A stretch of DNA of 34,528 nt from Pseudomonadales bacterium (lineage in GTDB: Bacteria > Pseudomonadota > Gammaproteobacteria > Pseudomonadales > DC-out160). Every line of letters begins with the position of its first letter. Within the stretch, counting starts at the first letter, position 1. Under the pieces are notes generated by a model. That model did no database searches and was not told the DNA's origin. It saw only the letters and a program-made list of their open reading frames with translations. The translations under genes and the position numbers were made by a program. The stretch lies in assembly GCA_016765265.1 (NCBI GenBank), contig JAESQG010000566.1:1-34528 (forward strand), given 5' to 3'. This document shows, piece by piece, positions 1-26,080 of the stretch.

Positions 1-1
1 A

Positions 2-382
2 GGCTCAAATGCCGTGGTCGTCAAAGGTGTCGAAGCTGGTGCCACTGTGGTGGGGGTGCCGGGCCGGGTTGTTTCACCCAAAAAAACAACGAGCAGTGAA
101 GAACAGCAACGGGCGGAAACGGCTAAAAAGCTTGGGTTTGATGCCTACGGAGCCACGAGTGATGCCCCGGACCCCGTGGCTAATGCCATTAACAGTCTAC
201 TGGATCACGTGCATGTTATGGATGGCAAAATGGCCTCCATGTGCGAGGCAATCAAACGGCTTGATGTAGAATTTAACGATGAAAAACTCCCGAACCTGGA
301 GAATTGCAGCATCAACCCCAGTGATGCCCCGCCGCAGGCTTCTTCCTCGTCAACCGGTGAAAATCAGGAAACTGAACGCTGA
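2..382 (+). CDS. cysE: serine O-acetyltransferase, C-terminal part (5' end lies off the window)
   Basis: The frame is open from the window edge. Hexapeptide-repeat-like GSNAVVVKGVEAGATVVGVPGRVV resembles the CysE C-terminus, followed by a long low-complexity tail. It lies directly upstream of iscR, a gene order known in pseudomonad-like gammaproteobacteria. Confidence 0.5.
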   Translation, partial: GSNAVVVKGVEAGATVVGVPGRVVSPKKTTSSEEQQRAETAKKLGFDAYGATSDAPDPVANAINSLLDHVHVMDGKMASMCEAIKRLDVEFNDEKLPNLENCSINPSDAPPQASSSSTGENQETER

Positions 383-487
383 ATTTGGTCGGTGCCAGAG
401 ACGGCTAATCACGAGCAAAGTAACCGTAGGCTGAATGAAATCAAGGTGTGCAGCCCATTTTTAGGCTGGAATGATGGTATTGCAACT

Positions 488-546
488 ATTACTTGACTAA
501 ACTTGTCGGATATAGATAATAGTACTTGACTAAATTTGTCGGATAT
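488..546 (+). promoter_or_regulatory. two tandem IscR type-1 operator-like sites within a 33-bp tandem duplication (490-522 and 523-555)
   Basis: TACTTGACTAAACTTGTCGGATAT (490-513) and TACTTGACTAAATTTGTCGGATAT (523-546) match about 21 of 24 positions of the IscR type-1 consensus as I recall it (ATASYYGACTRWWWYAGTCRRSTAT). The two 33-bp units differ only at position 502 (c) versus 535 (t). They lie upstream of iscR. Confidence 0.6.
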
Positions 547-801
547 AGATAATAGCAGATCAAATTGATCGGGTATTAGGGTGCGCAATTATTTTTCACC
601 CTACATTTTTCACCCTAAATAGATCAACAGGGAGAGCCTGGGAGAGACTGCTTGGGATTACATAGAATCCGGGTGGGTTTGACCAGAAAACGTAGCTTCG
701 GTAGGCTTCCGTTTAATTCCCGCGCTTTTAGTAAGCTTTAAGCGTTGATTGGTGGGCGGAGAGAGATCCGCCCCAACGTATGTAACCACTGAGGTGAAAT
801 T

Positions 802-1293
802 ATGAGATTGACGACCAAAGGCCGCTATGCCGTCACTGCAATGCTTGATCTGGCATTAAATGCTCAGGAACGGCCGATTACTCTGGCAGACATCTCCCAG
901 CGCCAGGGAATTTCTCTTTCCTATCTTGAGCAATTGTTTTCGCGCTTGCGCAAGCAAGGACTGGTGTCGAGCGCACGTGGCCCAGGGGGCGGATACCGCC
1001 TCAGTCGCGCTGCGAATGACATTAACATCGCTCAGATAATCGAAGCGGTTGACGAAAAAGTGTCAGTAACTCGTTGCGGCGGCAAGGGTGATTGTCAAAA
1101 TGGCGAATCTTGTTTAACCCATAAATTATGGTGCTCGTTAAGCGACCAGATTCACGGGTTTTTAGACAGCATTTCACTCGGAAGTCTGGTTGAAGAGGAA
1201 TATGTAAAAGTTGTCGCCGAGCGTCAGCTGAATGATACTCAGGAAGCGAATAGCCAGCCTGAAACAACGTTGCAGACCGCGACGAGCATGTAA
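802..1293 (+). CDS. iscR: Fe-S cluster assembly transcriptional regulator IscR (Rrf2 family)
   Basis: [19 protein letters not shown] is an Rrf2 winged-helix N-terminus. The cluster-ligand motif C-x5-C-x5-C-x2-H is present ([18 protein letters not shown]). A GAGGTG Shine-Dalgarno sequence precedes the ATG. Confidence 0.9.
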
Positions 1294-1355
1294 TTTTCGG
1301 GTAGCGAAGCGCACATAGTGCGTGCCGCTAATCAGACCCGAACGGGTGCAAATAC

Positions 1356-2579
1356 GTGACTTCATTCGACCACATATATCTCGACAACAATGCATCCACG
1401 CCGATAGATGAGCGTGTTTTAGAGACCATGCTGCCGTACCTGCGAGGGCAATATGGAAATCCTTCCAGTGTGTATCAGCTTGGGCGCATGGCACGGGCTG
1501 CCATCGACGTTGCGCGAGAACAAGTTGCCACATTGGTTAACGCACACCCCTCGCAAGTGGTATTTACCAGCGGGGGTACTGAGGCTAATAATTTAGCATT
1601 GAAAGGTGCCGCGGGAAGATTGCTCCCAGGCAGTCTGGCAATCAGTGCCGTTGAACATGGATCAGTACGTGCTCCGGCGCAGGCTTTACGAAAACAAGGC
1701 TGGGTACTGAGTGAAGTTGGCGTTGATACCCAAGGGCGCCTCGATATGATGCAACTCAATGAGGTGATTTCCAGTCATCACATGAGTACCGCCAGCACTG
1801 GCGTACCCGGTAAGAGCATGTCTGGCAAGAAAAAGCCTGGCAAGATCGTAGCGGTAATGTTGGCTAACAATGAAACCGGCGTCATTCATAATGTCGTTGA
1901 GGTCGCGGAACTGGCCCGAGAAAATGGCGCACTGTTATTTGTCGACGCCGTACAGGCTGCCGGTAAAATACCCGTCGATTTCAAGGTAACAGGCGCACAG
2001 ATGATGAGCTTGTCGGCGCATAAAATGTATGGTCCCAAGGGGGCTGGTGCTCTGATCGTCGACAAATCGACTGATATGGAGCCTTTGCTTCATGGCGGTG
2101 GGCACGAAAAAGGTCGGCGCACGGGAACTGAAAATGTCGCCGCCTTTGTCGGGTTTGGCAAGGCCGCAGAACTGGCAATGGCTGAAATGGAATTGCGACA
2201 CCAGCGTGTTCAGCCATTACGTGAACATCTCGAACAACGTGTGATGGCAGAAATGCCGGAAGTGAAGATATTTGCTCAAGAGGCAGAACGATTGCCCAAC
2301 ACCAGTTTTTTCGCGGTACCGGGTGTGGATGGAGAGACGCTGTTAATGAGTCTCGATCAGGCGGGTTTGGCCGTATCCAGTGGCTCCGCTTGTAGTACCG
2401 GTGAAACAGACCCCAGCCATGTGTTAATGGCGATGGGCGTGGATAAAGCACTGGCGCGAGGAGCCATTCGCGTAAGTTTGGGAAAAGATTCACAACGCAA
2501 TGAAATAGATCGTTTTGTGGATTGTCTTAAACAGCAGGTACAGGCATTACAACGCTTTGCTGCCGTTGCGTACGCGTAG
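1356..2579 (+). CDS. cysteine desulfurase, NifS/IscS-like class V aminotransferase (GTG start)
   Basis: PLP-lysine motif SAHKMYGPKGAGAL and catalytic cysteine loop SSGSACSTG are present, with an N-terminal YLDNNASTP motif. It carries a Ser/Lys/Gly-rich insert (SSHHMSTASTGVPGKSMSGKKKPGK). Confidence 0.85.
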   Translation: MTSFDHIYLDNNASTPIDERVLETMLPYLRGQYGNPSSVYQLGRMARAAIDVAREQVATLVNAHPSQVVFTSGGTEANNLALKGAAGRLLPGSLAISAVEHGSVRAPAQALRKQGWVLSEVGVDTQGRLDMMQLNEVISSHHMSTASTGVPGKSMSGKKKPGKIVAVMLANNETGVIHNVVEVAELARENGALLFVDAVQAAGKIPVDFKVTGAQMMSLSAHKMYGPKGAGALIVDKSTDMEPLLHGGGHEKGRRTGTENVAAFVGFGKAAELAMAEMELRHQRVQPLREHLEQRVMAEMPEVKIFAQEAERLPNTSFFAVPGVDGETLLMSLDQAGLAVSSGSACSTGETDPSHVLMAMGVDKALARGAIRVSLGKDSQRNEIDRFVDCLKQQVQALQRFAAVAYA

Positions 2580-2812
2580 GTTAGTGTTTGCGGCTGTAGG
2601 GCATCAATCGCGTATATGCCGTTTATAAGCTGTATTAATAGAGAGTTGTTAATAAGTTTTATAGCGCTTTGACAGTAATTATGAAACATAAGTTTTGATT
2701 CGAGCTAATTCTGGGCATTAGGTTTCATAACGAAAGCTTCAGCTAATAAGGGTTATGCAAGATTGTTTTTGAAATTGTGTATTGAAATTGTTTTAGAGAA
2801 AGGTAACAACAA

Positions 2813-3094
2813 ATGACAATCAGTAATGAACGCCCCATCTACATGGATTATGCGGCAACAACGCCAATGGATCCCCGCGTCGCGGAAAAAATGATGCAGT
2901 TTTTGACCCCGGACGGCGAGTACGGCAATCCGGCTTCGCGTTCGCATTCCTATGGCTGGAATGCAGAATCGGCTGTTGAAGAGGCACGCAAGCACGTTGC
3001 CAGTCTGGTGAATGCCAATCCCAAGGAAATTATCTGGACCTCGGGTGCGACGGAGTCTGACAATCTTGCTATCAAGGGTGTGGCGCATTTCTAT
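2813..3094 (+). pseudogene. iscS: iscS N-terminal fragment (first 94 codons only), truncated at the compositional breakpoint
   Basis: [24 protein letters not shown]...[19 protein letters not shown] is near-collinear with IscS residues 1 to about 94. After codon 94 the ORF reads [15 protein letters not shown] with no IscS similarity, in AT-rich DNA. The PLP lysine and catalytic cysteine regions are absent from the window. Confidence 0.8.
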
Positions 3095-3201
3095 AACTCT
3101 TTCGTGAGATATTTTTCTAGTGATAAAAATATTCACAAACCTTTGACTATCACTTTGACTAAATCTATTCGTATTCATAGCTACTCCAATCTATTCTTAA
3201 A

Positions 3202-4029
3202 TTATAAAACACAAGAAACGGCAGGTCTATACATTTCAAATTCTTCTTCTGTCCAAGAAGAATCTTTCCCTTTTAAGAACGCCATAACTTTATTTTGAGC
3301 CGCTTCACCATAAAAATTTCTAGCAAATCTTGGAATTTTTGAATCTCCATTATTTTTATTATCTCTAAACTTTTTAACTTGATTTGATAAATATTTTAGC
3401 GAAGTCGATAACAAAATCCCCGGACTACCATTAACTCTTTCGCAAGGTTTGGCTTCACCAATTTGCTGAAAACAAAATAGTTTAGTATAAAATTTTAAAT
3501 GTCTTGGGTGCACTTCTACAAGAAAGTCCGTTTGCTTCATATTGTGAAAAGCATGGATGAAAATAAAATGAAACATTCTCAACAAAATAGTCTTTGATGT
3601 TCTATATTCCGGTGCTATTGCTAGACGAGTAATCTCCGCTAATCGACGATTCATTTTTCTTAATGAAAATAATTCCTCATTAAAAATTTGATCACATGGT
3701 AGCCCGTCACCAGCTTCAAAATTTAAAGTTACAGTGCCAACGGCTTTTCCTTCTTTGGTTTCTACCAATAATGTAAAAACGTTTTTACCACCATCAAAAC
3801 TATTTACACAAACTTTATCTTCATTATGAATATATCCTGATTCGTTGTACACTTTGTAACCCAATTCATAGGCCTTTCGTCTAGAATCAATGTCCGTAGC
3901 GACAATAAAATTAAAATCTTCTTCATCATTTAAGTCAACTTTTAGCACAGGTTTTTTAGCAGTAGCGCTAATTATTTTTATGACTTGTGAAACAGCTGAA
4001 ATTCTTCTTTTTTTATTTGAAGCAATCAT
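3202..4029 (-). CDS. FeeM-type long-chain N-acyl amino acid synthase (NAS paralog A)
   Basis: GNAT-like motifs shared with the two other paralogs: [57 protein letters not shown]. The start is set at ATG 4029 because AGGAG lies 7 nt upstream. The ORF-track ATG at 4071 overlaps the predicted -12 promoter element. Confidence 0.7.
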
Positions 4030-4065
4030 TTTATTTCTCCTGTGATAATAAACATATTGAGTATA

Positions 4066-4082
4066 AAGCATTTAGTATGCCG
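4066..4082 (-). promoter_or_regulatory. sigma-54 (-24/-12) promoter candidate for NAS A
   Basis: The minus strand reads CGGCAT-ACTAA-ATGCTT. GG is at 4081/4080 and GC at 4069/4068, exactly 10 nt apart. The element lies about 40 nt upstream of ATG 4029, and a sigma-54 activator gene is divergent 150 bp away. Confidence 0.6.
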
Positions 4083-4223
4083 AATATTCACTATTTCATA
4101 AATACAGTATTTTCAATGGGTTAGAATATTACAGAGAAAAGATGGATAATTATTTTGACTTCAGTCGTTTAATTATTACTAATAATATCTCTATATTTTC
4201 TCTATTGATTATAGGCAATTATA

Positions 4224-6602
4224 ATGGCTTCAAAAAATAAAACGTATCATCCATTGATTGCCGCTTTTATTGAAAAGCTACATTGGTGGGACACCTTAGA
4301 AAAAATAAAAAAAAAGCTAGACACAGATGTATATAATATTTTCAAGCTACATGAAGATCTTCACAAGACACCTCGTGAAAATATAGAGCAATTAGCAGAG
4401 AAATTCAAAAAGGCCATTCCACTCTTTAACAATTTTCTTAAAAAAAAATGTGACCCAGACCTTCAGTTTTTATCGCTACTCTATTGGTTTGAGGACTGCA
4501 TGAAAGTTGGGACATTTATAGATGCAGATTTCGTAAAAAATCATTTAGAAAAAATTCTTAATAAAAATACTCCTGATGAATTGCAAAGTATTTTCTATGG
4601 ACATACTGGAGTTTATTATCGGAAAAAAGGAAATGCCTCTAAAGGAAATGAATATTTATTAAAATGTGTTCAATGCCTGAAACCAGATAATCCAAGATTC
4701 ATTCCCGTTTTAATTAATTATGGAAATATCACTAGCTATTTTGGTACGTATCCAAAAATTAAAAATGACATTGAGCTATATTTAAAAGATACAGACAAAG
4801 ATTTTAAACATTGGGGTGATCTATTACTATTTTTTTATTCTATTGAAATGGGTCATTTAAAACAAGCATGGGATGCCTTAAAAAATGTTCCAGAAAATGC
4901 ACCTGGAGTGCTATTTTATTATCATAAATTCAAAATTCATTCGTTTGCCATCGCTTTAAATAAAATGATTCAAAATTGGAATATCACTGATTTTTCAAAA
5001 GTTGAAAAACAGGAAATTGATGAATTCATTCGCGACAGGTATAATCCAGGGAGTTTCGATCGAGGGTATAATATAAAGATTGAAATATTAGATAATATCT
5101 ATTCAGGTAATAGCGATGAAGTAATTAAATTGACTCAAGAGGATAAATTAAGAAACAGAGATCATTGGGAATCAAGTTGGTTTTATTGCTCTCAAATTAG
5201 AATTGAACTCATGGCGGGCAATATTGAATCAGCCGAAATATTATTAAAAAATCTCATTTCAATTGGATATGAATTTATATGGAACGACTGGTTTATGACA
5301 CGAATTGAGCTAGCCAAAAAAAATATCGATGCTGCAAAATATTATTTTCAGAAATTATTAAAATCAGTACAAAAACATAATGCTGAAGATCGCTTTAACT
5401 TTGAGGTCAAAATAGCCCATGAAATAAAGGCAACCGATTTAATTCTATTATCAGACAATAAGAATTTAAAAATTAAAAAGCCCTCAAAGACCAAAATAAA
5501 TTTAGATATTGACAGAATGCCGGCAATCATTGGAATAAGCAAACAGGTAATTAAATTAAAAGAATCAATATCAAAAGTTGCCCCGCATGACATCAATGTT
5601 TTAATTCTAGGAGAGACAGGTACAGGTAAAGAGGTAGTCGCAAAATCACTGCACAATTTAGGCCCAAGAAAAAAAGAACCATACATTGCAATCAACTGTG
5701 CCGCCATTTCAGAAACATTACTTGAATCTGAATTATTTGGCCATCAGAAAGGTGCTTTTACGGGGGCAACAGAATACCATAAAGGTGTTTTTGAACAAGC
5801 GGGTAAGGGTACCGTTTTTTTGGATGAAATTGGTGAGATCAGCTCCAACATTCAAAGTGCTTTATTAAGAGTTTTAGAAACTAAAGATATTAAGCCGATC
5901 GGATCATCTAAATCTTTAAAAATTAATTGTCGTATCATCGCTGCAACTAATGCCAATCTAGAGTTGAAAGTAAAAAATAACGAATTTCGAATGGATCTTC
6001 TGCATCGCCTTAACAGAGTAGTCGTACATACAAATCCACTAAGAAAAAAAATCGAAGACATCCCCCACTTAAGCCAATATTTCTTAAATCAAAATCCGAA
6101 CTTCACAAAAGAAGCGAATCTAACCTTTGAGGCTATTGAAGCTTTAAAAAAATACCCGTGGCCAGGTAATGCTAGAGAACTTAAAAATGAAATGGAAAAC
6201 CTTCGGATTTTCAATTATGAGACATCCCTTTATGATCTTCAAGATTTAGATCCAAAATTTCATGGCCGAGCGGAATCCACTGAAAAAGCAGAAGCCCTAT
6301 CCCTTTCAAGTCTGCAAAGCTCCGAAAATAAACACGCGAAACCAACGGAGATAATTGATAGAGAACAAATCTTGGCAACTGAAGTTTTGTCAAACAATAA
6401 AATTTTCTTTCGAAGAATCGAAAAAATCAAAAAACTTTTTGATATTCATAACATATTAACACGAGCAGAATTAATAAAAATCATGGGAGTTTCTCACTTG
6501 ACAGTAACAAAAGATTTGAAGCTATTAATTGAACAAGACTATATTAAAAAAGTCATGCCGAGTAAATCTCCACGTTCACATTATTTTGAAAAACTACCTT
6601 AG
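4224..6602 (+). CDS. sigma-54-dependent transcriptional activator (bEBP 1) with a helical-repeat N-terminal domain and a winged-helix C-terminus
   Basis: Walker A GETGTGKE (about 5610-5633), GAFTGA (5751-5768), Walker B VFLDEIGE, and ESELFGH are present. There is no receiver, GAF or PAS signature in the roughly 430-aa N-terminus. The C-terminus LTRAELIKIMGVSHLTVTKDLKLLIEQDYIKKVMPSKSPRSHYF looks like a wHTH rather than a Fis-type HTH. Confidence 0.85.
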   Translation: MASKNKTYHPLIAAFIEKLHWWDTLEKIKKKLDTDVYNIFKLHEDLHKTPRENIEQLAEKFKKAIPLFNNFLKKKCDPDLQFLSLLYWFEDCMKVGTFIDADFVKNHLEKILNKNTPDELQSIFYGHTGVYYRKKGNASKGNEYLLKCVQCLKPDNPRFIPVLINYGNITSYFGTYPKIKNDIELYLKDTDKDFKHWGDLLLFFYSIEMGHLKQAWDALKNVPENAPGVLFYYHKFKIHSFAIALNKMIQNWNITDFSKVEKQEIDEFIRDRYNPGSFDRGYNIKIEILDNIYSGNSDEVIKLTQEDKLRNRDHWESSWFYCSQIRIELMAGNIESAEILLKNLISIGYEFIWNDWFMTRIELAKKNIDAAKYYFQKLLKSVQKHNAEDRFNFEVKIAHEIKATDLILLSDNKNLKIKKPSKTKINLDIDRMPAIIGISKQVIKLKESISKVAPHDINVLILGETGTGKEVVAKSLHNLGPRKKEPYIAINCAAISETLLESELFGHQKGAFTGATEYHKGVFEQAGKGTVFLDEIGEISSNIQSALLRVLETKDIKPIGSSKSLKINCRIIAATNANLELKVKNNEFRMDLLHRLNRVVVHTNPLRKKIEDIPHLSQYFLNQNPNFTKEANLTFEAIEALKKYPWPGNARELKNEMENLRIFNYETSLYDLQDLDPKFHGRAESTEKAEALSLSSLQSSENKHAKPTEIIDREQILATEVLSNNKIFFRRIEKIKKLFDIHNILTRAELIKIMGVSHLTVTKDLKLLIEQDYIKKVMPSKSPRSHYFEKLP

Positions 6603-6756
6603 TCCTCAACATTAACTTTTTTCAAATTAAGTATCTATATGTAAAACCGCTACAACTCATTCTGTTGTAATATTGTTTCCATACAACATATATATAGAAA
6701 CACCAAATTAGAAGACTAAACTTCTTTGAAAAGAATTCAATTTGAGAATATCTACC

Positions 6757-9700
6757 ATGCATATCTTTAATACTAAATTTTTTATAGTAATTTCGGCACA
6801 AATATTTTTACTTTTCATATCTATTCATTCTGAAGATTGGCCAATGTGGAAAGGTACCTCCGGACGCGGTGGAGTAAACAATGAGACATTACCCAGTAAA
6901 ATGAATTTGCTATGGACTCGTCAATTTCCAAAATCAAAACCAGCATGGGCTAATAACAAAAGCCAAGCAAAACTTCAGTTTGATGTATCCTTTCAACCAG
7001 TTGTTATGGGTAAAAGTATATTCGTACCTTCAAATGTTAATGATAGTGTAAGTGCATATGATACCGATAGCGGTAAGCAAAAATGGATTTTTTATTCTGA
7101 TGGCCCTGTAAGATTTGCACCCGTGGCCAATGATAATAAAGTTTATTTTGTATCGGATGACGGTTACTTGTATTGCCTCAATGCAGAATCAGGAAAACTA
7201 ATCTGGAAATATAATGGTGGACCTGAAAATAGGAAAATCCTTGGTCGTGATCGATTAATTTCTATCTGGCCAGCTCGTGGAGCACCAGTGCTAAAAAATA
7301 AAAAAATATTTTTTGCCGCCAGCATTTTCCCCTTTATGGGAACTTTCATTCATTGTGTGGATGCAAATTCAGGCAAAATGATTTGGAGAGATACAGGCAA
7401 CGGACCTAAATATTTTACGCAACCTCATGGTGCTGGATCTTTTGCTGGTCTTTCTCCTCAGGGATACCTTGCTGCAGGTGATAAATATTTAATCGTACCC
7501 GGAGGAAAATCTTTACCGGCTGTATATGACATTGAAACGGGGAAATTCTTATACTATTATTTGAACAGTAAGAAAGGCGGTTACAGTGTTCAAGCAGGTA
7601 AAAACTTTTATTTTACCGGTGGTTATGCCAATCAAATTAACAAAACAGAAAAAGGCTTTTCTATCATCAATGGTATATACGCCACTTACGGAAACACCTT
7701 AATTTCAGACAAGGCCATGTATCTTTTACATAATAGTATAATTACGGCTTACCGATTCAAGCCAGAATTTGAAATGAAGGTATATAAAAAAAATAGAAAA
7801 AAAGCTTATCTTACCATGCCAGTTTTGGGCGAATTCACAATTCCTTCGCCAAAAAGTGCTGTCAGGATCAAAGCCGGGAATCAAATTATTCTATATGAGC
7901 GTTACAAAAAACATCTTTACGCTGTTAAGCTACCAAATGAAGAAACACTATTAAAAGCAAAAGCCGGGGAATCTGTAAAACAAAACTTACCCACTATTTG
8001 GACTATCCCGACAGGAAAAAGCCCATGGTCTGTTATTGCTGCAGATAAAAAAGTTTTTGTGGTTACACACGAAGGACTATTATCTTGTTATGGTGCAAGC
8101 ACACAAGAGGTCCAAAAACATAACATTGCCTTAACTCCATTACCAGACACTTCAAACTCGGTTGCTAAATCATTGTTAGAAGTTTTAAAAGAATTGAAAA
8201 TTAAAGACGGCTATTGTGTTTTAGCAGGCTTAGGAAATGATAAATTAGCTGAAACGCTAATTAACAAAACAAACCTTTCTATAATTGCTGTCGATTCAGA
8301 TAAATCAAAAATAAATTCATTAAGACATTCAACTGATCAAGCTGGCTTTTATGGCAATAGAATGTCAGTACATGAAGGCGATCCCCTTTCATATCCACTC
8401 CCACCCTATTTCGCAAACATAATAATTATAACAAATTTAAGCAAACGTTTTTTATATAGTAAATCTAACTTAAAAACTTTATTTAATTCACTACGTCCTT
8501 ATGGTGGCACAGCTTTCTTTAAAGTATCTCCATCAGATATTGATAAAGTTAAAGCTCTATCTACAAAAGCAGGTCTTATTAATGCTGAAATAAAAGCTTC
8601 AAATGGATGGATGCTCTTAATTCGTAAGGGCGCACTTCCTGATTCTGCAGAATGGTCCCACCAGTATGCCGATTCATCAAATAGTATATTTGGCAAAGAT
8701 AAACTTGTCAAACTACCCCTAGGATTATTATGGTTTGGCGGTCCTCCAAATACAAATGTTCTACCAAGACATGGTCATGGTCCATCCCCTCAAGTGGCAG
8801 GCGGCAGAGTTATTATAGAAGGTCAGAATATGTTAAGGGCTGTTGATGCTTACACAGGCAGGTTACTTTGGGAACTTAAGTTAAAAAATCTAGGATATTA
8901 TTATCGACATACGGGCCATCATCCTGGTGCTAATGAAATTGGAGGAAATTACGTATCATTACAAGACACTATATATGTTGCTTATGGGAAAGATCTTTTA
9001 TTTTTAGAAGCAGCTACAGGCAATTTGTTAAAAAAAATAAATTACAAAGAAAATGATAGCGACAAAGAATCTAAAACATGGGGTCATATTTCTGTTCACA
9101 AAAATTATTTAATTACAACAACCTCACCAATTACATTTAAAATACAAAAAGATAAAACAGCTATAATAAATAAAAATGCAAAGTATTCTTCTGGAAGTGA
9201 ACAAATAATAGTACTTAATCGCAAGACGGGAAAAATACTCTGGAAACGAAAAGCCAAATTCAATTTTAGGCACAATGCCATATGCAGTGGCGATGGTGTC
9301 TTATTTTGCATTGACTCTTTCTCAAAAAGTAAATTTAATTATTTAAGAAACCAAGAAGAGAAAATCGGAAAACTATTAGCACTTGATATCAAAACTGGGA
9401 AAGAAATTTGGTCCAGTAATGAAAATATAACAGGAACCTTTTTAAATTATTCTGATAAACACAAAGTCCTTCTCCAGGCCGGTAGCTCCAACCGAGACAG
9501 GGCCAGAGATGAGACAAAAACAGGCATGATAGTTTATCAAGCTAAAGATGGAAAAGTAGTCTGGCAAAATTTAAAAATAAAATACGGAGGCCCATTAATT
9601 ATCCGACACAAAGAAATCATTACCAATGGTGGTGGTGGCACAGGAATTGATTTACTTTCAGGCAAAGCCACAAGTTTTAAGTGGAAACGAAACTACGGAT

Positions 9701-10446
9701 GCAACACCGCTATTAGTTCAGAACACCTACTGACCTTTCGATCAGGGGCAGCAGGTTTTTATGATTTAACTAATAGAGGCGGAACAGGAAACTTCGGTGG
9801 TTTTAAATCCAGTTGTACATCAAATCTTATTCCAGCTGATGGAATACTAAATGCTCCCGATTATACCAGATCTTGTTCATGTGCTTATCAGCTCACTGTC
9901 TCCTGTGCTTTGGTCCATATGCCTGATGTAGAGTACTGGACATTTAAAGCTGATGCTACTCCTGGAAAATGGGGATTCAATATTGCTGCATTAGGAGATA
10001 GGAAAGTCCCCAATGGTTCTTTGTGGCGAAAATTTGACATTTTAAAAAACAGAAAATATATACGATCAACTTCTGGCAAATTAACACCGTTCAGAGTTCA
10101 TTCAGGCTACGTTAAAGGAGAAAAGTTTAAATGGGTTGCTTCCTCTGGAGTAAAAGGTTTAACTGATTTAAACATCAATGTTAAGGGAGCTACCAAAGGT
10201 ACCGTTAGGCTAATTTTCATGGAACCAGACAAACTCAAAATAGGAGATAGAATCTTTGATATATCATTGCAGGGAAAAGAGTTAATTAAAGGGCTTGATA
10301 TAATCAAAGAATCTGGAGGACAAAATCATGTCCTGATCAAAGAATTTAAAGATATCGAATTAAACAATTCATTAAAAATTATATTTAAAGCATCCACAAA
10401 GAACCCACCTATTCTCAGCGGAATAGAAATTATCAAAACAAATTAG
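6757..10446 (+). CDS. secreted PQQ-like beta-propeller repeat protein with a central Rossmann/methyltransferase-like insert and a C-terminal malectin-like domain
   Basis: The N-terminus is hydrophobic (FFIVISAQIFLLFISIHS). BamB/PQQ-like repeats recur (SGKQKWIF, DGYLYCLNAESGKLIWKY, DANSGKMIW, DAYTGRLLWE, NRKTGKILWK, DIKTGKEIW). The C-terminus IFDISLQGKELIKGLDIIKESGG resembles malectin domains. The ORF track starts at TTG 6742; ATG 6757 is preferred. Confidence 0.6.
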   Translation: MHIFNTKFFIVISAQIFLLFISIHSEDWPMWKGTSGRGGVNNETLPSKMNLLWTRQFPKSKPAWANNKSQAKLQFDVSFQPVVMGKSIFVPSNVNDSVSAYDTDSGKQKWIFYSDGPVRFAPVANDNKVYFVSDDGYLYCLNAESGKLIWKYNGGPENRKILGRDRLISIWPARGAPVLKNKKIFFAASIFPFMGTFIHCVDANSGKMIWRDTGNGPKYFTQPHGAGSFAGLSPQGYLAAGDKYLIVPGGKSLPAVYDIETGKFLYYYLNSKKGGYSVQAGKNFYFTGGYANQINKTEKGFSIINGIYATYGNTLISDKAMYLLHNSIITAYRFKPEFEMKVYKKNRKKAYLTMPVLGEFTIPSPKSAVRIKAGNQIILYERYKKHLYAVKLPNEETLLKAKAGESVKQNLPTIWTIPTGKSPWSVIAADKKVFVVTHEGLLSCYGASTQEVQKHNIALTPLPDTSNSVAKSLLEVLKELKIKDGYCVLAGLGNDKLAETLINKTNLSIIAVDSDKSKINSLRHSTDQAGFYGNRMSVHEGDPLSYPLPPYFANIIIITNLSKRFLYSKSNLKTLFNSLRPYGGTAFFKVSPSDIDKVKALSTKAGLINAEIKASNGWMLLIRKGALPDSAEWSHQYADSSNSIFGKDKLVKLPLGLLWFGGPPNTNVLPRHGHGPSPQVAGGRVIIEGQNMLRAVDAYTGRLLWELKLKNLGYYYRHTGHHPGANEIGGNYVSLQDTIYVAYGKDLLFLEAATGNLLKKINYKENDSDKESKTWGHISVHKNYLITTTSPITFKIQKDKTAIINKNAKYSSGSEQIIVLNRKTGKILWKRKAKFNFRHNAICSGDGVLFCIDSFSKSKFNYLRNQEEKIGKLLALDIKTGKEIWSSNENITGTFLNYSDKHKVLLQAGSSNRDRARDETKTGMIVYQAKDGKVVWQNLKIKYGGPLIIRHKEIITNGGGGTGIDLLSGKATSFKWKRNYGCNTAISSEHLLTFRSGAAGFYDLTNRGGTGNFGGFKSSCTSNLIPADGILNAPDYTRSCSCAYQLTVSCALVHMPDVEYWTFKADATPGKWGFNIAALGDRKVPNGSLWRKFDILKNRKYIRSTSGKLTPFRVHSGYVKGEKFKWVASSGVKGLTDLNINVKGATKGTVRLIFMEPDKLKIGDRIFDISLQGKELIKGLDIIKESGGQNHVLIKEFKDIELNNSLKIIFKASTKNPPILSGIEIIKTN

Positions 10447-10478
10447 GCAACAGTCGTAGGTTGGGCTGCAGACTATTT

Positions 10479-11315
10479 TCAATCGCCAGAATCGATTAAA
10501 CCTACCGTGTCAATTCCCAGTAGTTGATTATCTAGCCACTGCATTACACTTGGCCACAATTTCTGTGTCCAATCGTTTTGAGGATTATAAAAAAATCCAT
10601 GGCCAGAATTGGGGCTAGGTATAAAAGTGACTGGTCTCTCATTTTTCATTAATGCGTTAGCAAGAATTAAGGATTGATCATAAGGAACCGTTTCATCAAA
10701 AGGATCGTGCACAATATACATAGGTGAAGAATTTTTATCAACATGCAATGCTGGAGAAGCTTGGACATATACTTCTTCAATTTCTTCAATGGTACCACCT
10801 AAGAAATGAGCTCTTTTATTTTTTGTTTTTTCATAATTATTTTCTAGATAAACAAAATCATGAACTCCATGAACATCAACCACACAATTAACTTTAGCAG
10901 AGACCCCATCATGCTCTTGGCCAAATACACCTAGGCAAGCAACTAGATGCCCTCCGGCAGAACTGCCGATGGCACCAATCTTATCAACACTGATTTTAAA
11001 GCGATCTGCATTTTTACGAAACCAAACAACAGCTGACTGACAATCGATTAAAGCAGCAGGAAACACAGCCACTTGGGATAGTCGATAGCTAATTGTACAA
11101 GCAACATAACCGTGTAAAGCAAGACGATGAGCATGCCATAAAAATTGATTTCGATCGCCAGCATTCCAGCCCCCGCCATGCACTAAGATGATACCGGCGC
11201 CATTTTGTTTTTTTTCACTAGGTAGGAATACATCTGCAGTAAGTTCTGTTTCGCCATAAATGGCAAAGACCTCGGAAAGATCGGGGTCAGGAAACTCTTT
11301 TTCGTAATATGTCAT
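10479..11315 (-). CDS. alpha/beta hydrolase (esterase/lipase-like)
   Basis: Oxyanion motif VHGGGW and nucleophile elbow GSSAGG are present, with a late GHGF histidine region. Confidence 0.75.
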   Translation of the reverse strand: MTYYEKEFPDPDLSEVFAIYGETELTADVFLPSEKKQNGAGIILVHGGGWNAGDRNQFLWHAHRLALHGYVACTISYRLSQVAVFPAALIDCQSAVVWFRKNADRFKISVDKIGAIGSSAGGHLVACLGVFGQEHDGVSAKVNCVVDVHGVHDFVYLENNYEKTKNKRAHFLGGTIEEIEEVYVQASPALHVDKNSSPMYIVHDPFDETVPYDQSLILANALMKNERPVTFIPSPNSGHGFFYNPQNDWTQKLWPSVMQWLDNQLLGIDTVGLIDSGD

Positions 11316-15041: not shown

Positions 15042-15088
15042 TTTATTATTTCCAATTAAAATAATTGATATCACATGCTAGTAGTCAT

Positions 15089-15105
15089 ATGGTAGCACAA
15101 GCTTC
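15089..15105 (+). promoter_or_regulatory. 17-nt motif ATGGTAGCACAAGCTTC, copy 1 (divergent sulfatase intergenic region)
   Basis: It is identical to 30305-30321. A near-identical inverted copy lies at 15164-15180. Confidence 0.35.
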
Positions 15106-15163
15106 CAGCATGTAACTAAAATGCTGATTATAGAATATAATATGAAAAAATTCACAACAAGCT

Positions 15164-15180
15164 AGAAGCTTGTACTACAT
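15164..15180 (-). promoter_or_regulatory. inverted near-copy of the sulfatase-associated motif
   Basis: The minus strand reads ATGTAGTACAAGCTTCT. GTAGTACAAGCTTC matches GTAGCACAAGCTTC at 13 of 14 positions. It is oriented toward the minus-strand sulfatase. Confidence 0.3.
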
Positions 15181-15287
15181 AAATATTTCAATTTAAAATT
15201 TTATTATCAAGATTGAGACATTCATTGCAATCTATGAAATATCACTATAACCATTTATACTTTTGATCACAATAATGAGGAACAATC

Positions 15288-16720: not shown

Positions 16721-17896
16721 CTAAGCAAGAACAAGTTCATGTTCAACACCAAAGTAACACATTTCATCTACACTCATTGGTCTACTTGATTCACGAATAA
16801 AATCACCAATATAGGCTTCCTGCATTTCTAAAACAAAATAGTTGTACAATGTTTTTCTCCCAACTCTTGCTGTTGTATTTCTACCAGCAATTATTTTTTC
16901 TTCAGCTTTACCAAGATCTAGTTTTAATAAGACGGCAGGAGCTCCTTGAACCCTTCCACAAGGCTTAGAGTCACCAATTACTTCAAAACATAAAAGTCTT
17001 TTGTAATAGCCAACATGTCGAGGGTTAACCTCAATCAACATATGATCAGATGCAAGGTTTTTATATGCATGTATATAAACAAAGTTCATAAGATTTTTAA
17101 TTAGGTTTCGAGAGTTCCTATAGCTTTCATCAACAACCAATCGAGTTATCTCCACCATTTTTTTATTTTGATTATTCAACTCACTTAATTCGTCTTTAAA
17201 TATTTTCTGACAAGGAATATCGCCATGAACATTTGACACTACTGAAATAGAAGCCACAGAATTTCCATTTTCGTCTTCTGCTAAAAAAGTAATTGTATCC
17301 GGCCTTGCATCGTCACTATTAACAAATAATTTATTTCGATCTTGAGATGAATAGCCACACTGACCATATACTTTTTGAGATAATTGATAAACTTTCTCTC
17401 TATCAACTCGATTAGAAGCCACACTAATTCTAAAGTTGATCTTTTCAGATATCTCCCATTTTGGAGAACCAATTTCTACTTCTTCTTTTAATACCCATAG
17501 TGCTTGAGAAGTTGCTGAACGTTTTTTCTCTTTGATTTGATGCTTTTTCTCAATCTCATCTCGCACTTCAATTTTTTCACTCTTCAATACCTGTTTTAAT
17601 TTTCCGCCTGAGAGAAAAATATCCTCTCTATCCTTTGCACCCAATTGAATTAAAAAATCATGAACAATACATTTATCAGATATAGAAGTTAACACTAATG
17701 AAAGACTAACGACTAAAGCTCCCAAATTCCAATAAGGGTTGTACATACTCATGAGTAGAAAAATAGAAATTAAAAACCCACTGATTAGTCTTCCATATCT
17801 ATCCACACTCCAGTGACTAAAACTTTTAGACAAAGCTGCTTTAAAACCATTTAAATGATTGTTCAGTTTTGGGGTCTGAATCGCTGAAATACTCAT
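16721..17896 (-). CDS. membrane-anchored FeeM-type N-acyl amino acid synthase (NAS paralog B): DUF2892/YgaP-like two-helix N-terminus plus NAS domain
   Basis: The N-terminus has VDRYGRLISGFL (the DRxxRxxxG signature), two hydrophobic helices, and SDKCIVHDFLIQLG. The C-terminal part carries NAS motifs INFRISVASNRVDREKVYQLSQKVY, VEITRLVVDESYR and EVNPRHVGYYKRLLCFEVIG. A GGGAGA Shine-Dalgarno sequence precedes the ATG. Confidence 0.7.
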   Translation of the reverse strand: MSISAIQTPKLNNHLNGFKAALSKSFSHWSVDRYGRLISGFLISIFLLMSMYNPYWNLGALVVSLSLVLTSISDKCIVHDFLIQLGAKDREDIFLSGGKLKQVLKSEKIEVRDEIEKKHQIKEKKRSATSQALWVLKEEVEIGSPKWEISEKINFRISVASNRVDREKVYQLSQKVYGQCGYSSQDRNKLFVNSDDARPDTITFLAEDENGNSVASISVVSNVHGDIPCQKIFKDELSELNNQNKKMVEITRLVVDESYRNSRNLIKNLMNFVYIHAYKNLASDHMLIEVNPRHVGYYKRLLCFEVIGDSKPCGRVQGAPAVLLKLDLGKAEEKIIAGRNTTARVGRKTLYNYFVLEMQEAYIGDFIRESSRPMSVDEMCYFGVEHELVLA

Positions 17897-17935
17897 TGTC
17901 TTTCTCCCATTAAATATCTGAATTAAATCTTCTAA

Positions 17936-17951
17936 TGCAAATCACAAGCCA
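17936..17951 (-). promoter_or_regulatory. sigma-54 (-24/-12) promoter candidate for NAS B
   Basis: The minus strand reads TGGCTT-GTGAT-TTGCA, close to the consensus TGGCAC-N5-TTGCW. GG is at 17950/17949 and GC at 17938/17937, 10 nt apart. The element is about 40 nt upstream of ATG 17896. Confidence 0.7.
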
Positions 17952-18030
17952 AATTTCAATAAATCGTAAGTTCCTAATTTTAAAAGAGTTATGATAAATG
18001 CTCAACATTTAGCACTGGAAATAATTGACT

Positions 18031-18066
18031 TATATAGATCAATTAAAACTTAAATTGATCTATATA
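18031..18066. promoter_or_regulatory. perfect 14-bp inverted repeat; candidate enhancer (UAS) for bEBP 2
   Basis: TATATAGATCAATT (18031-18044), an 8-nt spacer, then AATTGATCTATATA (18053-18066). Its centre is about 100 nt upstream of the -24 element of the NAS B promoter and about 75 nt upstream of the bEBP 2 ATG. Confidence 0.45.
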
Positions 18067-18124
18067 GATTATTACAATTCCTAATATACAATAAGTAATA
18101 AAAATTAAACCAAGGAAAGTAGCG

Positions 18125-20422
18125 ATGAGTTTTATTGATGCATGGTTAAATGAGGATCAAACAGCCATGGACAATCTCCTAAAAAAGAGTTCCAAAAATA
18201 AAAAACTCCACCAAGCTTACGAGGCAATAATAAATTCCAACAATTCAGATTCATTGAAATTCAAATCGTTAATCAATGTTATTGAAGACCCACCTGATGA
18301 CCTTGAAATTTATTCTCTTCTACTTTACTTAGCAGCAGACGTGGCCTATGCCACCAACAATTTTTCCGAATTAAATAGAATAATTCAAATCTATCAAAAT
18401 CTAGATCTTTCAAAAATAAAAAGCATATGTAAAAGTCTATTTTACTTATCATTAGCACGCCTAGAATTATCTAAAAATATGTCTGACCAACAACTTGAAT
18501 CAGAAATAAAAGCAGAAAGTCTATATCCAAAAGGGTCAATACGGTGGTATAAAATGAAGGCGAAAGTGACCTTAGGATGCATACTCCACAAAAAGGAATA
18601 CGATATTTCAAAGGCAATTAAAATATTAAAAGGATACCCTCAATTCTCTGAATCAACCTTTCCACCTGAATACCTTCAAGCAAGATATTATGAATCAATT
18701 GGAAAGTTATCATTGGCCTATCAGGAAATTAACAAGATTAAAAACATAGCCATATTTGGAAAGTTTGGAGAAAATATATTCTCACAAAAAGTAAAACTTT
18801 TGTGGAGAGCTGGAAAAATTGAAGAAGGTGATATAGAGCTAGAAAAATATTTGAACATGTACCCAGAATTAATCGGCAATAGATCCGGCAAGTTTTTATT
18901 AGCAGAAAGAAGCATGCTATTAAATGATTCAAATGGTACAAAACAGCATTTAAAGGAAATCTTAGCTGACAAAAAGGTTTTATCGCTTAGTAGATTTTGG
19001 GCGAATTATTTATTGCTTTGCGCAGAGTTAGCTCAACGACAAACAGTATCCGCTCGCAGAATATTAAATACAATGGATCCAGAAGGAACCAATAAGGGAC
19101 TTTTTACAGAGTGGGTAAGATTATATACTCAGGAAGACAATTACAGAAAAGCAGCCTATTATTTCAAGAAGATGCAAGAAGATCGTCCAAATTATCTTTT
19201 AGAGTTTCATTATGCTCACGAAATGAGAGCTTCACAGATCACAAAATTAATATTGACGATCAATGATGAAGAGTTCAATGAAGTAAAGAGTGTTATAGAA
19301 AAACCACACTATAAAATCGATGACACTAAAGACTCTTTTGAAAATTTCATAGGAACCTCAGAAAGTATTAACACCGTAAAAGAAAACATACAGAAATATG
19401 CCAATCAATCAGCACCCGTTTTAATTACAGGCGCAACTGGTACAGGAAAAGAAGAAACAGCCAAACTACTTCATAAACTTTCTGATAGGTCAAAAGAACC
19501 TTTTATTCCTGTCAACTGTGGAGCCATATCCAACACCTTAATGGAAGCAGAATTATTTGGCTATAAAAAAGGAGCATTTACAGGTGCCATGAAAGATCAT
19601 AAAGGTCTCTTTGAATCTGCAGGCAAAGGCACCATTTTTCTTGATGAGATCAGCTCTATGCCCATGCCCTTACAAGCTTCTCTTTTACGAGTATTAGAAA
19701 ATATGATCGTCAGACCAGTAGGAAGTACAAAATTTATTCCTATTGAGGCAAGAGTTATTGCGGCGACAAATATTAGCCTGGAAATATTATTAGAACAAAA
19801 AACATTTCGCATGGATCTTTACTTTCGCCTTAATAGATTACAAATCAATCTACCTTCTCTTCAAGATAGAAGAGATGACATTCCTCTTTTAATTCAACAC
19901 TTTTTGGGCCATCATTTTAATCTTTCAGACACAACCATAGATAAAAATTTATTGGATGCAATGCAAGAGCATTCTTGGCCTGGTAATATCAGAGAATTAA
20001 AAAATGAAATCGAAAGAATGGCCATTATTACCGGCAATAATAAATTGATTACAAATGAGCTTGTAAATTTTAAGAGTTCCGAAATAAAAGAGAATATTGC
20101 ACCAATTGATATAAAACAAAAATCCTTCGTTTCAGATGAGAATAAAATCACTCCAATGACACAAGAAAATATTTATTCGCCACCTAATATCTCTTTAGAA
20201 AAAGGTGTGAAAAATTATAGCGAATATAGAAGGCAAGAATTACGACAATTATTCCAACAACACCGCTTATTAACACGAGCTATGGTTGTTCGGTTTTTAG
20301 GATGTGCTGCCAATACTGCTGCGAAAGACTTGAAGAGTTTAGAAACAGCAGGTTACTTAAAAAAGGTAATTCCTACCGATTCTCCAAGATCTTCCTATTA
20401 CATATTAAATGATAAAAATTAA
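18125..20422 (+). CDS. sigma-54-dependent transcriptional activator (bEBP 2), same architecture as bEBP 1
   Basis: Walker A GATGTGKE (about 19430-19453), GAFTGA (19571-19588), IFLDEISS, and EAELFGY are present. The C-terminus LTRAMVVRFLGCAANTAAKDLKSLETAGYLKKVIPTDSPRSSYY aligns with the bEBP 1 tail. The N-terminal domain is helical. Confidence 0.85.
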   Translation: MSFIDAWLNEDQTAMDNLLKKSSKNKKLHQAYEAIINSNNSDSLKFKSLINVIEDPPDDLEIYSLLLYLAADVAYATNNFSELNRIIQIYQNLDLSKIKSICKSLFYLSLARLELSKNMSDQQLESEIKAESLYPKGSIRWYKMKAKVTLGCILHKKEYDISKAIKILKGYPQFSESTFPPEYLQARYYESIGKLSLAYQEINKIKNIAIFGKFGENIFSQKVKLLWRAGKIEEGDIELEKYLNMYPELIGNRSGKFLLAERSMLLNDSNGTKQHLKEILADKKVLSLSRFWANYLLLCAELAQRQTVSARRILNTMDPEGTNKGLFTEWVRLYTQEDNYRKAAYYFKKMQEDRPNYLLEFHYAHEMRASQITKLILTINDEEFNEVKSVIEKPHYKIDDTKDSFENFIGTSESINTVKENIQKYANQSAPVLITGATGTGKEETAKLLHKLSDRSKEPFIPVNCGAISNTLMEAELFGYKKGAFTGAMKDHKGLFESAGKGTIFLDEISSMPMPLQASLLRVLENMIVRPVGSTKFIPIEARVIAATNISLEILLEQKTFRMDLYFRLNRLQINLPSLQDRRDDIPLLIQHFLGHHFNLSDTTIDKNLLDAMQEHSWPGNIRELKNEIERMAIITGNNKLITNELVNFKSSEIKENIAPIDIKQKSFVSDENKITPMTQENIYSPPNISLEKGVKNYSEYRRQELRQLFQQHRLLTRAMVVRFLGCAANTAAKDLKSLETAGYLKKVIPTDSPRSSYYILNDKN

Positions 20423-21782: not shown

Positions 21783-21785
21783 AAG

Positions 21786-21857
21786 CTCCCCCGACTGGAT
21801 TCGAACCAGTGACCAAGTGATTAACAGTCACCTACTCTACCGCTGAGCTACAGGGGA
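21786..21857 (-). tRNA. tRNA-Asn (anticodon GTT)
   Basis: The reverse complement folds as a cloverleaf: acceptor UCCCCUG/CGGGGGA, D stem GCUC/GAGU, anticodon stem GGUGA/UCACU with loop CUGUUAA, T arm ACUGG-UUCGAAU-CCAGU, discriminator G. It closely resembles E. coli tRNA-Asn. CCA is not encoded. Confidence 0.9.
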
Positions 21858-23461: not shown

Positions 23462-23494
23462 GAGTAATTTAATTCCAAGAAAGGTTTAAGTCAA

Positions 23495-23746
23495 ATGACA
23501 GAAGAAGAGGTTCGGTCAGCAGTTGTTAAAATCATTGAAGATGTTGCCCCAGATGAAGATTTATCAGAAATTGACGATAATAAAGCCTTACGTGATCAAA
23601 TCGAATTGGACTCAATGGATTTTCTAGACATTGTTATGGAACTAAGAAAACGTTACAGCGTTGAAGTCCCGGAAGCAGAATACCCCGAATTAAATTCTCT
23701 CGCAAGTTGTGTTACATATTTAACACCAAAATTAAAAGACAAATAA
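23495..23746 (+). CDS. acyl carrier protein
   Basis: It is 83 aa and acidic, with the phosphopantetheine-attachment motif IELDSMDFLDIV. Confidence 0.85.
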   Translation: MTEEEVRSAVVKIIEDVAPDEDLSEIDDNKALRDQIELDSMDFLDIVMELRKRYSVEVPEAEYPELNSLASCVTYLTPKLKDK

Positions 23747-23802
23747 TTACTAGCAGCCGGCAAGCATTTAACTTACCGGCAACCTTAACTAAATAAATTA
23801 GC

Positions 23803-25197: not shown

Positions 25198-25497
25198 TTA
25201 GTTAATCACCTCTAAGTTAATCTTAAAATCAGAATAGTTACAACCTCTCAATTCACAGCCTATAAAAAGATACAGACTTATCATATATTAACGAATTAAA
25301 AAATTCATATATAAGGTCTCCCCTAAATAGAAATATTTCATGATGCGTTTTAATCTATGTAAAAAAATGAAAACTAATTATTAATTTATACAGCACTCTC
25401 GTTGCATCCTAAATTATTGATATAAATAGAGTTAGGATACAATCATCAGTATTTTCTATTTGAAATCTATTGTCTTTGATATTTTAAAAATTAAACG

Positions 25498-25537: not shown

Positions 25538-25562
25538 AAAAGAGAAACCTCTCAAGTAGAAA

Positions 25563-26075: not shown

Positions 26076-26080
26076 AGAAA

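Follow-up and report, generated by a model that had tools for sequence, protein, structure and literature searches.

What switches on a sigma-54-dependent activator that has neither a recognizable receiver domain nor a kinase beside it, and which gene does it serve? This question is raised by two genes, bEBP1 and bEBP2, on a 34,528-nucleotide stretch of DNA from a Pseudomonadales bacterium (GenBank assembly GCA_016765265.1, contig JAESQG010000566.1, positions 1 to 34,528; the whole stretch is called the window here), both of which encode bacterial enhancer-binding proteins (bEBPs) of unusual layout. We consider it likely that both proteins are dedicated sigma-54 activators of the divergently transcribed operon beside them, which carries a FeeM-family gene for a synthase of N-acyl amino acids (NAS), and that they are gated by an N-terminal tetratricopeptide repeat (TPR) domain. 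The sequence examined comprised the 34.5-kb window together with flanks of up to 10 kb, and the Pfam scans and alignments of the family were performed on 24 relatives of the two window proteins.

The Pfam family Sigma54_activat was matched by bEBP1 at residues 435-601 (E = 9.7e-65, 217.8 bits) and by bEBP2 at residues 409-574 (E = 6e-63, 211.9 bits), against a cut-off of 20.2 bits, and by 24 of the 24 relatives as well; AAA_lid_14 was also found in both window proteins (E = 5e-16 in bEBP1). The Walker A motif (GETGTGKE in bEBP1 and GATGTGKE in bEBP2), the Walker B motif (FLDEI) and GAFTGA (residues 510-515 and 483-488, respectively) are all intact, and the positions of the three are invariant across the family alignment. 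By every testable criterion, bEBP1 and bEBP2 are bona fide bEBPs. The same scans gave no match to HTH_8, the receiver domain (REC; Response_reg), GAF or PAS in either protein at E ≤ 1, and none of these was present among the 25 most-matched Pfam families of the 24 relatives at E ≤ 0.1, while PRD and PTS domains were matched neither in bEBP1 and bEBP2 nor among the families scanned in the relatives. No NCBIfam equivalog came near its cut-off, matches to NifA, NorR, NtrC, PrdR and others being confined to the AAA+ core, and no histidine kinase was found among the window open reading frames (ORFs) of at least 100 amino acids, on which our statements about kinases rest. The two proteins stand outside the NtrC, Fis-tail, LevR, DeoR and RRNPP groups.

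The two proteins can be aligned with each other solely from about residue 315 to the end (38% identity), and the N-terminal region of bEBP1 contains no Pfam domain. A family profile of this region matched a consensus TPR (8bu0, E = 1.5e-10) as well as kinesin light chain TPRs. The AlphaFold2 (AF2) model of the bEBP1 N-terminus consists of 22 helices and no strands (pLDDT 85.8, pTM 0.85), and all listed Foldseek matches of the model were helical-repeat proteins, mostly of the TPR type and all at E > 1e-3, with the best TM-scores obtained for Rap-CSF (4gyo, 0.50/0.59) and MalT domain III (1hz4, 0.49/0.56). Since single Pfam TPR models matched just 3 of the 24 family members, we regard the repeats as divergent. 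As modelled, the N-terminal region is a divergent, generic TPR superhelix that has no specific homologue of known function. Identity to bEBP1 over the whole N-domain is 14-21%, except for one relative, P0002 (37%), and the residues that are conserved across the family (R360, E328, L329, A371, E394, E400 and L409) gather in the last TPR helices, beside the AAA+ core.

The DNA-binding (D) domain of bEBPs is described as a Fis-type helix bundle (review PMC7175178), and the C-terminal ~75 residues of the window proteins are predicted to form a DeoR/MarR-like winged helix instead. HTH_DeoR was matched below its cut-off of 21 bits by both bEBP1 (E = 0.018, 15.2 bits) and bEBP2 (E = 0.002, 18.2 bits); among the relatives, HTH_DeoR was matched by 14 of 24 (best E = 1.4e-5) and HTH_11 by 10 of 24, and no DeoRC effector domain was found in the window bEBPs. 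When a profile of the last ~78 residues was searched against the PDB, it matched the winged helices of the MarR-type regulators AdcR and ZitR (AdcR, 1.3e-5) and of CRP (2e-4). The AF2 model of the tail alignment shows three helices followed by a two-stranded wing (H-H-H-strand-strand, pLDDT 90.5), with AdcR, MarR, ZitR and HsmR-DNA as the top Foldseek matches (TM 0.65-0.73), and it superposes on DNA-bound MarR-family domains (HsmR-DNA, 8zde; MarR-DNA, 5h3r; ZitR-DNA, 5yi3). A sequence-only reading of this DNA had proposed an all-helical, TPR-like N-terminus, a canonical sigma-54 AAA+ core, a winged-helix tail in place of a Fis-type HTH, no receiver, GAF or PAS domain and no adjacent sensor kinase, and the structure models and the profile searches, including those for cryptic domains, agree with it throughout. 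That reading had also argued that, with no sensor kinase adjacent, control is more likely exerted through the N-terminal domain by direct binding of a ligand or partner, which we regard as a reasonable inference since both receiver domain and kinase are lacking.

This architecture is the trait of an uncharacterised bEBP family of several hundred sequence clusters, and not a peculiarity of the source genome. An HMMER search of 1.84 billion cluster representatives with the N-terminal profile yielded 531 clusters (50% identity) at E ≤ 1e-3, 306 at ≤ 1e-10 and 176 at ≤ 1e-30, and among the matches listed nearly all were proteins of 740-830 amino acids with the N-domain at residues 1-400. A word-indexed protein search with the N-terminal 432 residues had matched nothing, not even the parent protein; because the exhaustive HMMER search found these 531 clusters and a full-length query also found relatives, the null was treated as a prefilter false negative, nulls from this prefilter being unreliable on low-complexity helical repeats. 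Metagenome contigs were scanned with a motif from the end of the TPR domain and the resulting 15 loci were checked with custom hidden Markov models: all 15 encode the TPR N-domain and the AAA+ core, and 14 of the 15 also match the winged helix-turn-helix (wHTH) profile, the exception being L108, where the gene runs off the contig end. A scan of genome contigs with the full-length alignment, whose motifs fell in the AAA+ core, recovered 80 ordinary bEBPs (L012-L091) and no family member. For bEBP1, one close full-length homologue was found, P0002 (47% identity), which derives from a Planctomycetota metagenome-assembled genome (MAG). About 20 relatives of bEBP2 were found (655-866 amino acids), all lacking HTH_8 and REC, and its full-length relatives P0122-P0125 are 44-46% identical to it. 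Two relatives carry the label Planctomycetota MAG, and the source annotations of family members read "hypothetical protein" or are generic and inaccurate.

Both window activator genes lie head-to-head with a FeeM-family synthase gene. Synthase no. 1 and synthase no. 2 matched Pfam FeeM (PF21926) at E = 6.6e-42 and E = 2.3e-40, respectively, and the three FeeM genes of the window scored 143.4, 138.4 and 120.3 bits against a cut-off of 27, as predicted enzymes. In total, 10 non-redundant loci have a FeeM gene in the divergent unit (the two window loci, L001, L003, L008, L010, L092, L097, L098 and L105), and at L102 a FeeM gene lies just downstream. The FeeM operons further contain genes for an NMO-type oxidoreductase, glycosyltransferases, a hexapeptide acyltransferase, a GMC oxidoreductase and an NmrA-like protein. 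The closest paired relative of synthase no. 2 is the synthase beside the bEBP2 orthologue in L003 (233 bits). In about half of the surveyed family loci, where a NAS neighbour was looked for within 5-8 kb of the activator gene, none was found; opposite the activator there is either a gene resembling methyltransferases, an S8 peptidase gene, or a gene for a small coiled-coil protein with that for a giant protein behind it.

The intergenic regions were then compared for -24/-12 promoters in two sets (10 and 11 regions, 21 in total) by a strand- and position-specific scan with a weighted matrix (maximum score 21.5) and shuffled-sequence controls. A sigma-54 site pointing outward, away from the activator gene, was found in 9 of the 10 regions of the first set (each P ≤ 0.005 by shuffling), where 0.18 were expected, and in 8 of the 11 regions of the second set, that is, in 17 of 21. 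The synthase gene is therefore the likely regulated target, by virtue of this outward promoter. At synthase no. 2, the predicted promoter has two mismatches to TGGCAC-N5-TTGCA and a score of 19.0, which was reached by 0.1% of shuffles, and its position is conserved in the alignment with L003 and L005. At synthase no. 1, the predicted promoter has a score of 18.0 (reached by 0.15% of shuffles), and it is kept between the orthologous genes of L001 (TGGCACTAGAAATGCT; block TAAAGCATTT..TGCC), where the proteins are 47% identical; among the orthologues that share a promoter, protein identity is 44-47%. The mechanical start of the synthase no. 1 ORF (ATG 4071) falls within this promoter, and because of that overlap we reassigned the start to Met15 at 4029, which is probably the real one and would leave a leader of ~27 nt. 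A plain TGGCAC-N5-TTGCA scan of the whole window showed no enrichment (78 matches vs 77 expected), and no motif comparable to the -24/-12 element was found downstream of the activators.

Candidate binding sites were found in the same intergenic regions. On the bEBP2 side, AATTGAYYTATATAGAT occurs twice at a distance of 30 bp, in a stretch 70-130 bp upstream of the promoter of synthase no. 2, and the second copy holds a perfect palindrome (ATCTATATAGAT, 18058-18069). The orthologous regions contain repeats with a TCTAT core, namely ATTGCGTCTAT in L003 (three direct copies and one inverted) and ATCTATATGGGTTAA in L005 (two copies). On the bEBP1 side, two blocks are conserved with L001, of which the block at 4148-4160 is identical at 13 of 13 positions in the pairwise alignment and contains TTGACT; judged from this conservation, the blocks at 4110-4160 may be an activator binding region and/or the -35 element (TTGACT) of bEBP1 itself.

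The analysis established the architecture, the family and the frequent NAS partner and, by comparison across the loci, the promoter motif, the way it points and its conservation. The mechanism that we propose would run as follows. As dimers, the winged-helix tails would occupy sites repeated within the divergent intergenic region of 150-230 bp, and the AAA+ ring, using ATP and its GAFTGA loops, would open the outward-pointing -24/-12 promoter and so drive the neighbouring FeeM-type synthase gene. The TPR domain would take the place of the receiver, GAF or PAS module, its conserved last helices contacting and gating the AAA+ core and its highly variable first 300 residues binding the signal directly, without a kinase. 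We favour gating by a directly bound signal because neither receiver nor kinase was found, because the junction between the TPR domain and the AAA+ core is conserved, and because of the analogy with MalT-type and RRNPP regulators. Several observations weigh against this reading. The synthase no. 1 promoter has four mismatches to TGGCAC-N5-TTGCA and is a weak match, and its overlap with the mechanical ORF start is what requires a start codon to be reassigned; 4 of the 21 loci have no outward promoter; the candidate binding sites are short AT-rich repeats, weakly significant in DNA of 25% GC; and the recognition helix (S-x-TATKDLK-x-L) is strongly conserved throughout the family while the candidate sites differ between clades, which is odd for a specificity determinant.

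The alternative that survives best, and that we hold as a tentative possibility, concerns the nature of the signal: the TPR domain may bind a protein, such as an anti-activator (as in PspA-PspF and HrpV-HrpS), or a peptide (as in RRNPP receptors), and not a lipid, the synthase being a mere output. In general, TPR domains mostly serve to bind peptides or proteins, and the fold matches of the bEBP1 N-domain include subunits of the APC, kinesin light chain and Rap; moreover, the TPR domain is retained in members without a NAS neighbour. One locus, L010, carries three tandem paralogous activator genes (3733-10612; 760, 762 and 761 amino acids) facing an operon for a glycosyltransferase, FeeM and a hexapeptide acyltransferase, and by analogy with HrpR/HrpS the tandem paralogues hint at hetero-oligomeric activators, which would suit regulation by a protein partner. 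However, no conserved small ORF or partner gene was found beside the activators in the window, nor consistently in the related loci, and the divergent unit is the only recurrent element of the neighbourhood.

A second alternative takes the product of the synthase itself as the signal, which the sequence-only reading had put forward as plausible. Here the adjacent FeeM would produce the N-acyl amino acid that the TPR domain binds as its ligand, giving a LuxI/LuxR-like pair that works through sigma-54, with positive feedback or cell-cell signalling; FeeM, as reportedly found by Van Wagoner and Clardy in 2006, is structurally related to LuxI-type synthases. The head-to-head arrangement of synthase and activator at 10 loci would fit this, and the source genome carries two such pairs whose sensors cannot be aligned over the first 300 residues, as expected of signal-specific receptors. 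Furthermore, Rap, a receptor for peptide pheromones, and the domain of MalT that binds its inducer are among the best global fold matches, and some synthases and sensors co-vary (the second window pair, win2, with L003, L008 with L092, and L010 with L097). Over all pairs, however, the similarity among synthases tracks that among sensors only weakly (Spearman 0.28; Mantel P 0.09, not significant), bEBP1 and P0002 are orthologues beside non-orthologous synthases (103 vs 288 bits), the fold matches are to generic TPRs at E > 1e-3, and the loci without NAS within 5-8 kb make up about half of the survey. We therefore regard autoinduction as doubtful, and slightly more doubtful still the stronger claim that these pairs are a new class of autoinduction or cell-cell circuit in which the FeeM product is read directly by the TPR domain. 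If true, it would be the first bacterial receptor for N-acyl amino acid lipids and a LuxI/LuxR-like system built on sigma-54, and a genome with several orthogonal pairs would parallel the case of multiple LuxI/R pairs.

It is also conceivable, though improbable, that the tail does not bind an enhancer at all and serves dimerisation or ligand sensing, the activator working from solution or through another surface as FlgR and CtcC do. Some bEBPs do lack a DNA-binding domain (PMC7175178), and a recognition helix that is near-invariant across clades with differing intergenic repeats is what such a tail might show. Against this, the model of the tail is a confident, canonical wHTH that superposes on DNA-bound MarR-family domains, it occupies the usual position of the bEBP DNA-binding domain, and repeats and palindromes are present at the classical distance of an upstream activating sequence (UAS). 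That the synthases are adjacent by coincidence, the activators regulating the downstream PQQ-propeller/malectin gene or distant targets, is very improbable, for although the downstream neighbours vary between orthologous loci in a fluid context (the ORF at 20431-21615 downstream of bEBP2 is unrelated to the gene at the matching position of the orthologous locus) and the single-motif scan of the window was unenriched, the outward promoter at 17 of 21 loci against ~0.18 in 10 expected, its conservation between orthologues and the lack of a comparable motif downstream of the activators all speak for the synthase.

The features of the two loci are collected in Table 1.

Table 1. Features of the bEBP1 and bEBP2 loci, with window positions (promoters and binding sites are predictions).
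Feature	Position	Strand	Remarks
bEBP1	4224..6602	+	792 aa; TPR sensor, sigma-54 AAA+ core, winged-helix tail
bEBP1 TPR-like superhelix	4251..5453	+	residues ~10-410, 22 helices (model)
bEBP1 AAA+ sigma-54 interaction core and lid	5526..6293	+	Pfam Sigma54_activat, AAA_lid_14
bEBP1 motifs	Walker A 5610-5633; GAFTGA 5751-5768; Walker B 5817-5831	+	
bEBP1 wHTH	6375..6599	+	residues ~718-790; presumed DNA-binding domain
bEBP2	18125..20422	+	765 aa; architecture as bEBP1
bEBP2 domains	TPR ~18125-19300; AAA+ core 19349-19846; lid 19865-20062; wHTH ~20192-20404	+	
bEBP2 motifs	Walker A 19430-19453; GAFTGA 19571-19588; Walker B 19637-19651	+	
FeeM-family N-acyl amino acid synthase no. 1	3202..4029	-	mechanical ORF to 4071; likely bEBP1 target
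FeeM-family N-acyl amino acid synthase no. 2	16721..17896	-	391 aa, catalytic domain residues 169-327; likely bEBP2 target
Predicted sigma-54 -24/-12 promoter of synthase no. 1	4067..4082	-	5'-CGGCATACTAAATGCT-3', GG-N10-GC spacing
Predicted sigma-54 promoter of synthase no. 2	17936..17951	-	5'-TGGCTTGTGATTTGCA-3', ~40 nt upstream of ATG
Good ribosome-binding site of synthase no. 2	17900-17907		GGAGAAAG
Conserved intergenic blocks, bEBP1 side	4110-4122; 4148-4160		TTTTCAATGGGTT; AATTATTTTGACT; conserved with L001
Imperfect inverted repeat	4133-4146 / 4190-4203		bEBP1 intergenic region
Candidate UAS, bEBP2 side	18023..18069		two copies of AATTGAYYTATATAGAT, 18023-18039 and 18053-18069, 30 bp apart

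When compared with known systems, bEBP1 and bEBP2 resemble the classical bEBPs (NtrC, NifA, NorR, XylR and PspF; PF00158) in the central AAA+ domain with Walker A and B motifs, GAFTGA and lid, in the division into a regulatory, a catalytic and a DNA-binding domain, and in the divergent -24/-12 promoter with upstream repeats. Unlike them, they have a regulatory domain that is a ~400-residue TPR superhelix and not REC, GAF, PAS, V4R or ACT, and a DeoR/MarR-type winged helix in place of the three- or four-helix bundle of HTH_8. From the NtrC-type response regulators they differ in lacking REC, in the all-helical N-terminus and in having no kinase in the window, and from the DeoR family in the sub-threshold HTH_DeoR match and the lack of DeoRC, the likeness being confined to the type of HTH. 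In the LevR/CelR-type PRD activators of Firmicutes, a DeoR-like or HTH_11-like winged helix is combined with a sigma-54 AAA+ core, and there is hence precedent for a non-Fis DNA-binding domain on a bEBP; LevR, however, has its winged helix at the N-terminus and a PRD/EIIA region, phosphorylated by the PTS, at the C-terminus, whereas the window proteins have a C-terminal wHTH, an N-terminal TPR domain and no PRD.

The combination of an NTPase switch with a TPR-like superhelical sensor and an HTH is shared with MalT/LAL and with AfsR-type SARPs of the STAND class, and MalT, in which an inducer bound to the helical-repeat sensor licenses oligomerisation, is the best functional analogy. The differences are that the window proteins carry a clade-6 sigma-54 AAA+ domain and not a STAND NTPase, that the domain order is reversed, that the output is sigma-54 remodelling and not sigma-70 recruitment, and that there is no sequence homology beyond generic TPR. 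The RRNPP receptors (Rap, NprR, PlcR and PrgX) have a TPR superhelix of similar size, which in their case is a direct cytoplasmic signal receptor, and the Rap structures matched by the bEBP1 N-domain (4gyo, with the best TM-score, and phi3T Rap, 8rst) are matched at the level of the fold alone, at E > 1e-3. Should autoinduction hold, the likeness would extend to a receptor gene beside a signal-making gene. Unlike the window proteins, RRNPP receptors have no ATPase, their HTH is N-terminal and of the XRE type or is missing, and their peptides come from an adjacent small ORF; no such small ORF was seen between or beside the window bEBP genes.

The PrsK-PrsR-PrsT set of PEP-CTERM/exosortase systems likewise brings a sigma-54 activator together with a TPR protein and a FeeM-like acyltransferase in one functional neighbourhood (Haft 2006, PMC1569441), and the link between NAS and PEP-CTERM (TIGR03694) is cited in PMC7293339. 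FeeM1 of the window has a weak, sub-threshold match to TIGR03694. PrsR is, however, a REC-AAA-Fis regulator with a histidine kinase and PrsT a separate TPR lipoprotein, whereas the window bEBPs are TPR-AAA+ fusions without a kinase, and no exosortase or PEP-CTERM gene was seen in the window. The stieleriacine cluster for N-acyl tyrosines (Stieleria maiorica, Planctomycetota; BGC0002080), the one planctomycete NAS cluster that has been characterised, is similar in having several NAS genes, KAS and oxidoreductases, to which the three FeeM genes, the KAS gene at 22223-23461 and the FAD oxidases of the window correspond, but its annotated regulator is DegU-like and neither a sigma-54 activator nor a member of the present family.

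A number of further observations were made around the activator genes. In one subfamily (L009, L011, L099/L100, L104 and L107), the activator faces a coiled-coil-like protein of 110-220 amino acids that belongs to no known family, behind which a giant protein of more than 1000 to more than 2000 amino acids is encoded (an S8 peptidase/NHL protein in L009); most of these loci also have an outward sigma-54 promoter, with a target class unrelated to NAS. L001 encodes a second family-size bEBP (747 amino acids) 3 kb from the first. Nitroreductase-like (SagB-type?) proteins are encoded near two family members (L003, 10433-12478; L008, 12898-13962), with a ThiF-like gene in L003, and could be part of a modification set for ribosomally synthesised and post-translationally modified peptides or of the thioamide type; the window has no counterpart, the ORF at 20431-21615 being without a Pfam match. 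Positions 22223-30301 may hold a further cluster for N-acyl amino acid biosynthesis that is controlled differently. Besides KAS, it comprises an amine-oxidase-like flavoprotein (23803-25197), an ECF sigma factor (25563-26075), a FecR-type anti-sigma factor (26081-27631) and a protein of 809 amino acids (27872-30301) in which the third FeeM domain is joined to an FAD_binding_4 oxidase. No convincing sigma-54 promoter was found before this third FeeM gene, GGGCACAATTGTTTCA at 27685 lacking the -12 GC.

The left end of the window differs in composition from the rest. Positions 1-3100 have ~50% GC, against 30-36% elsewhere, and contain an Rrf2 regulator, a NifS/IscS-like gene and an IscS fragment; this second cysteine-desulfurase gene (2813-3100, IscS-type N-terminus of ~95 amino acids) stops abruptly near 3095, where the GC content drops from ~0.5 to 0.28. 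An independent JGI contig with the same sequence begins at about window position 4188. The boundary may stem from a misjoin during assembly or mark the edge of a genuine rearrangement or insertion, and the pair of synthase no. 1 and bEBP1 sits entirely on its low-GC side. Rfam and ARAGORN gave no match over the window besides a tRNA-Asn (GTT; 21785-21857, - strand), which separates the bEBP2 locus from the KAS/FeeM3 cluster. Four sulfatase genes surround the loci (in 13422-16655, 30428-31960 and 32974-34476) and a PQQ-beta-propeller/malectin protein of 1234 amino acids is encoded at 6742-10446; together with the relatives labelled Planctomycetota, these genes fit a polysaccharide-degrading bacterium of the PVC group.

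Reviews list REC, GAF, PAS, V4R or PRD as the sensors of bEBPs and a Fis-type DNA-binding domain, and a literature search found nothing specific on TPR- or winged-helix-containing bEBPs, nor any publication in which NAS genes are connected with sigma-54 or with an activator of their own. What is new here is an unannotated bEBP family with a novel combination of sensor and DNA-binding domain and a recurrent, previously unreported target class; to our knowledge, NAS genes have no known link to sigma-54 or to a dedicated activator. The family replaces both ends of the bEBP at once and needs no kinase, and its hundreds of clusters have no specific annotation and are currently mislabelled by annotation pipelines, for instance as "response regulator" or "PAS, ATPase and Fis domain". 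NAS products such as the stieleriacines alter biofilms, and the pairing described here yields a concrete, testable regulator/promoter pair for switching on silent NAS genes, with the TPR domain as a defined candidate receptor for lipid sensing.

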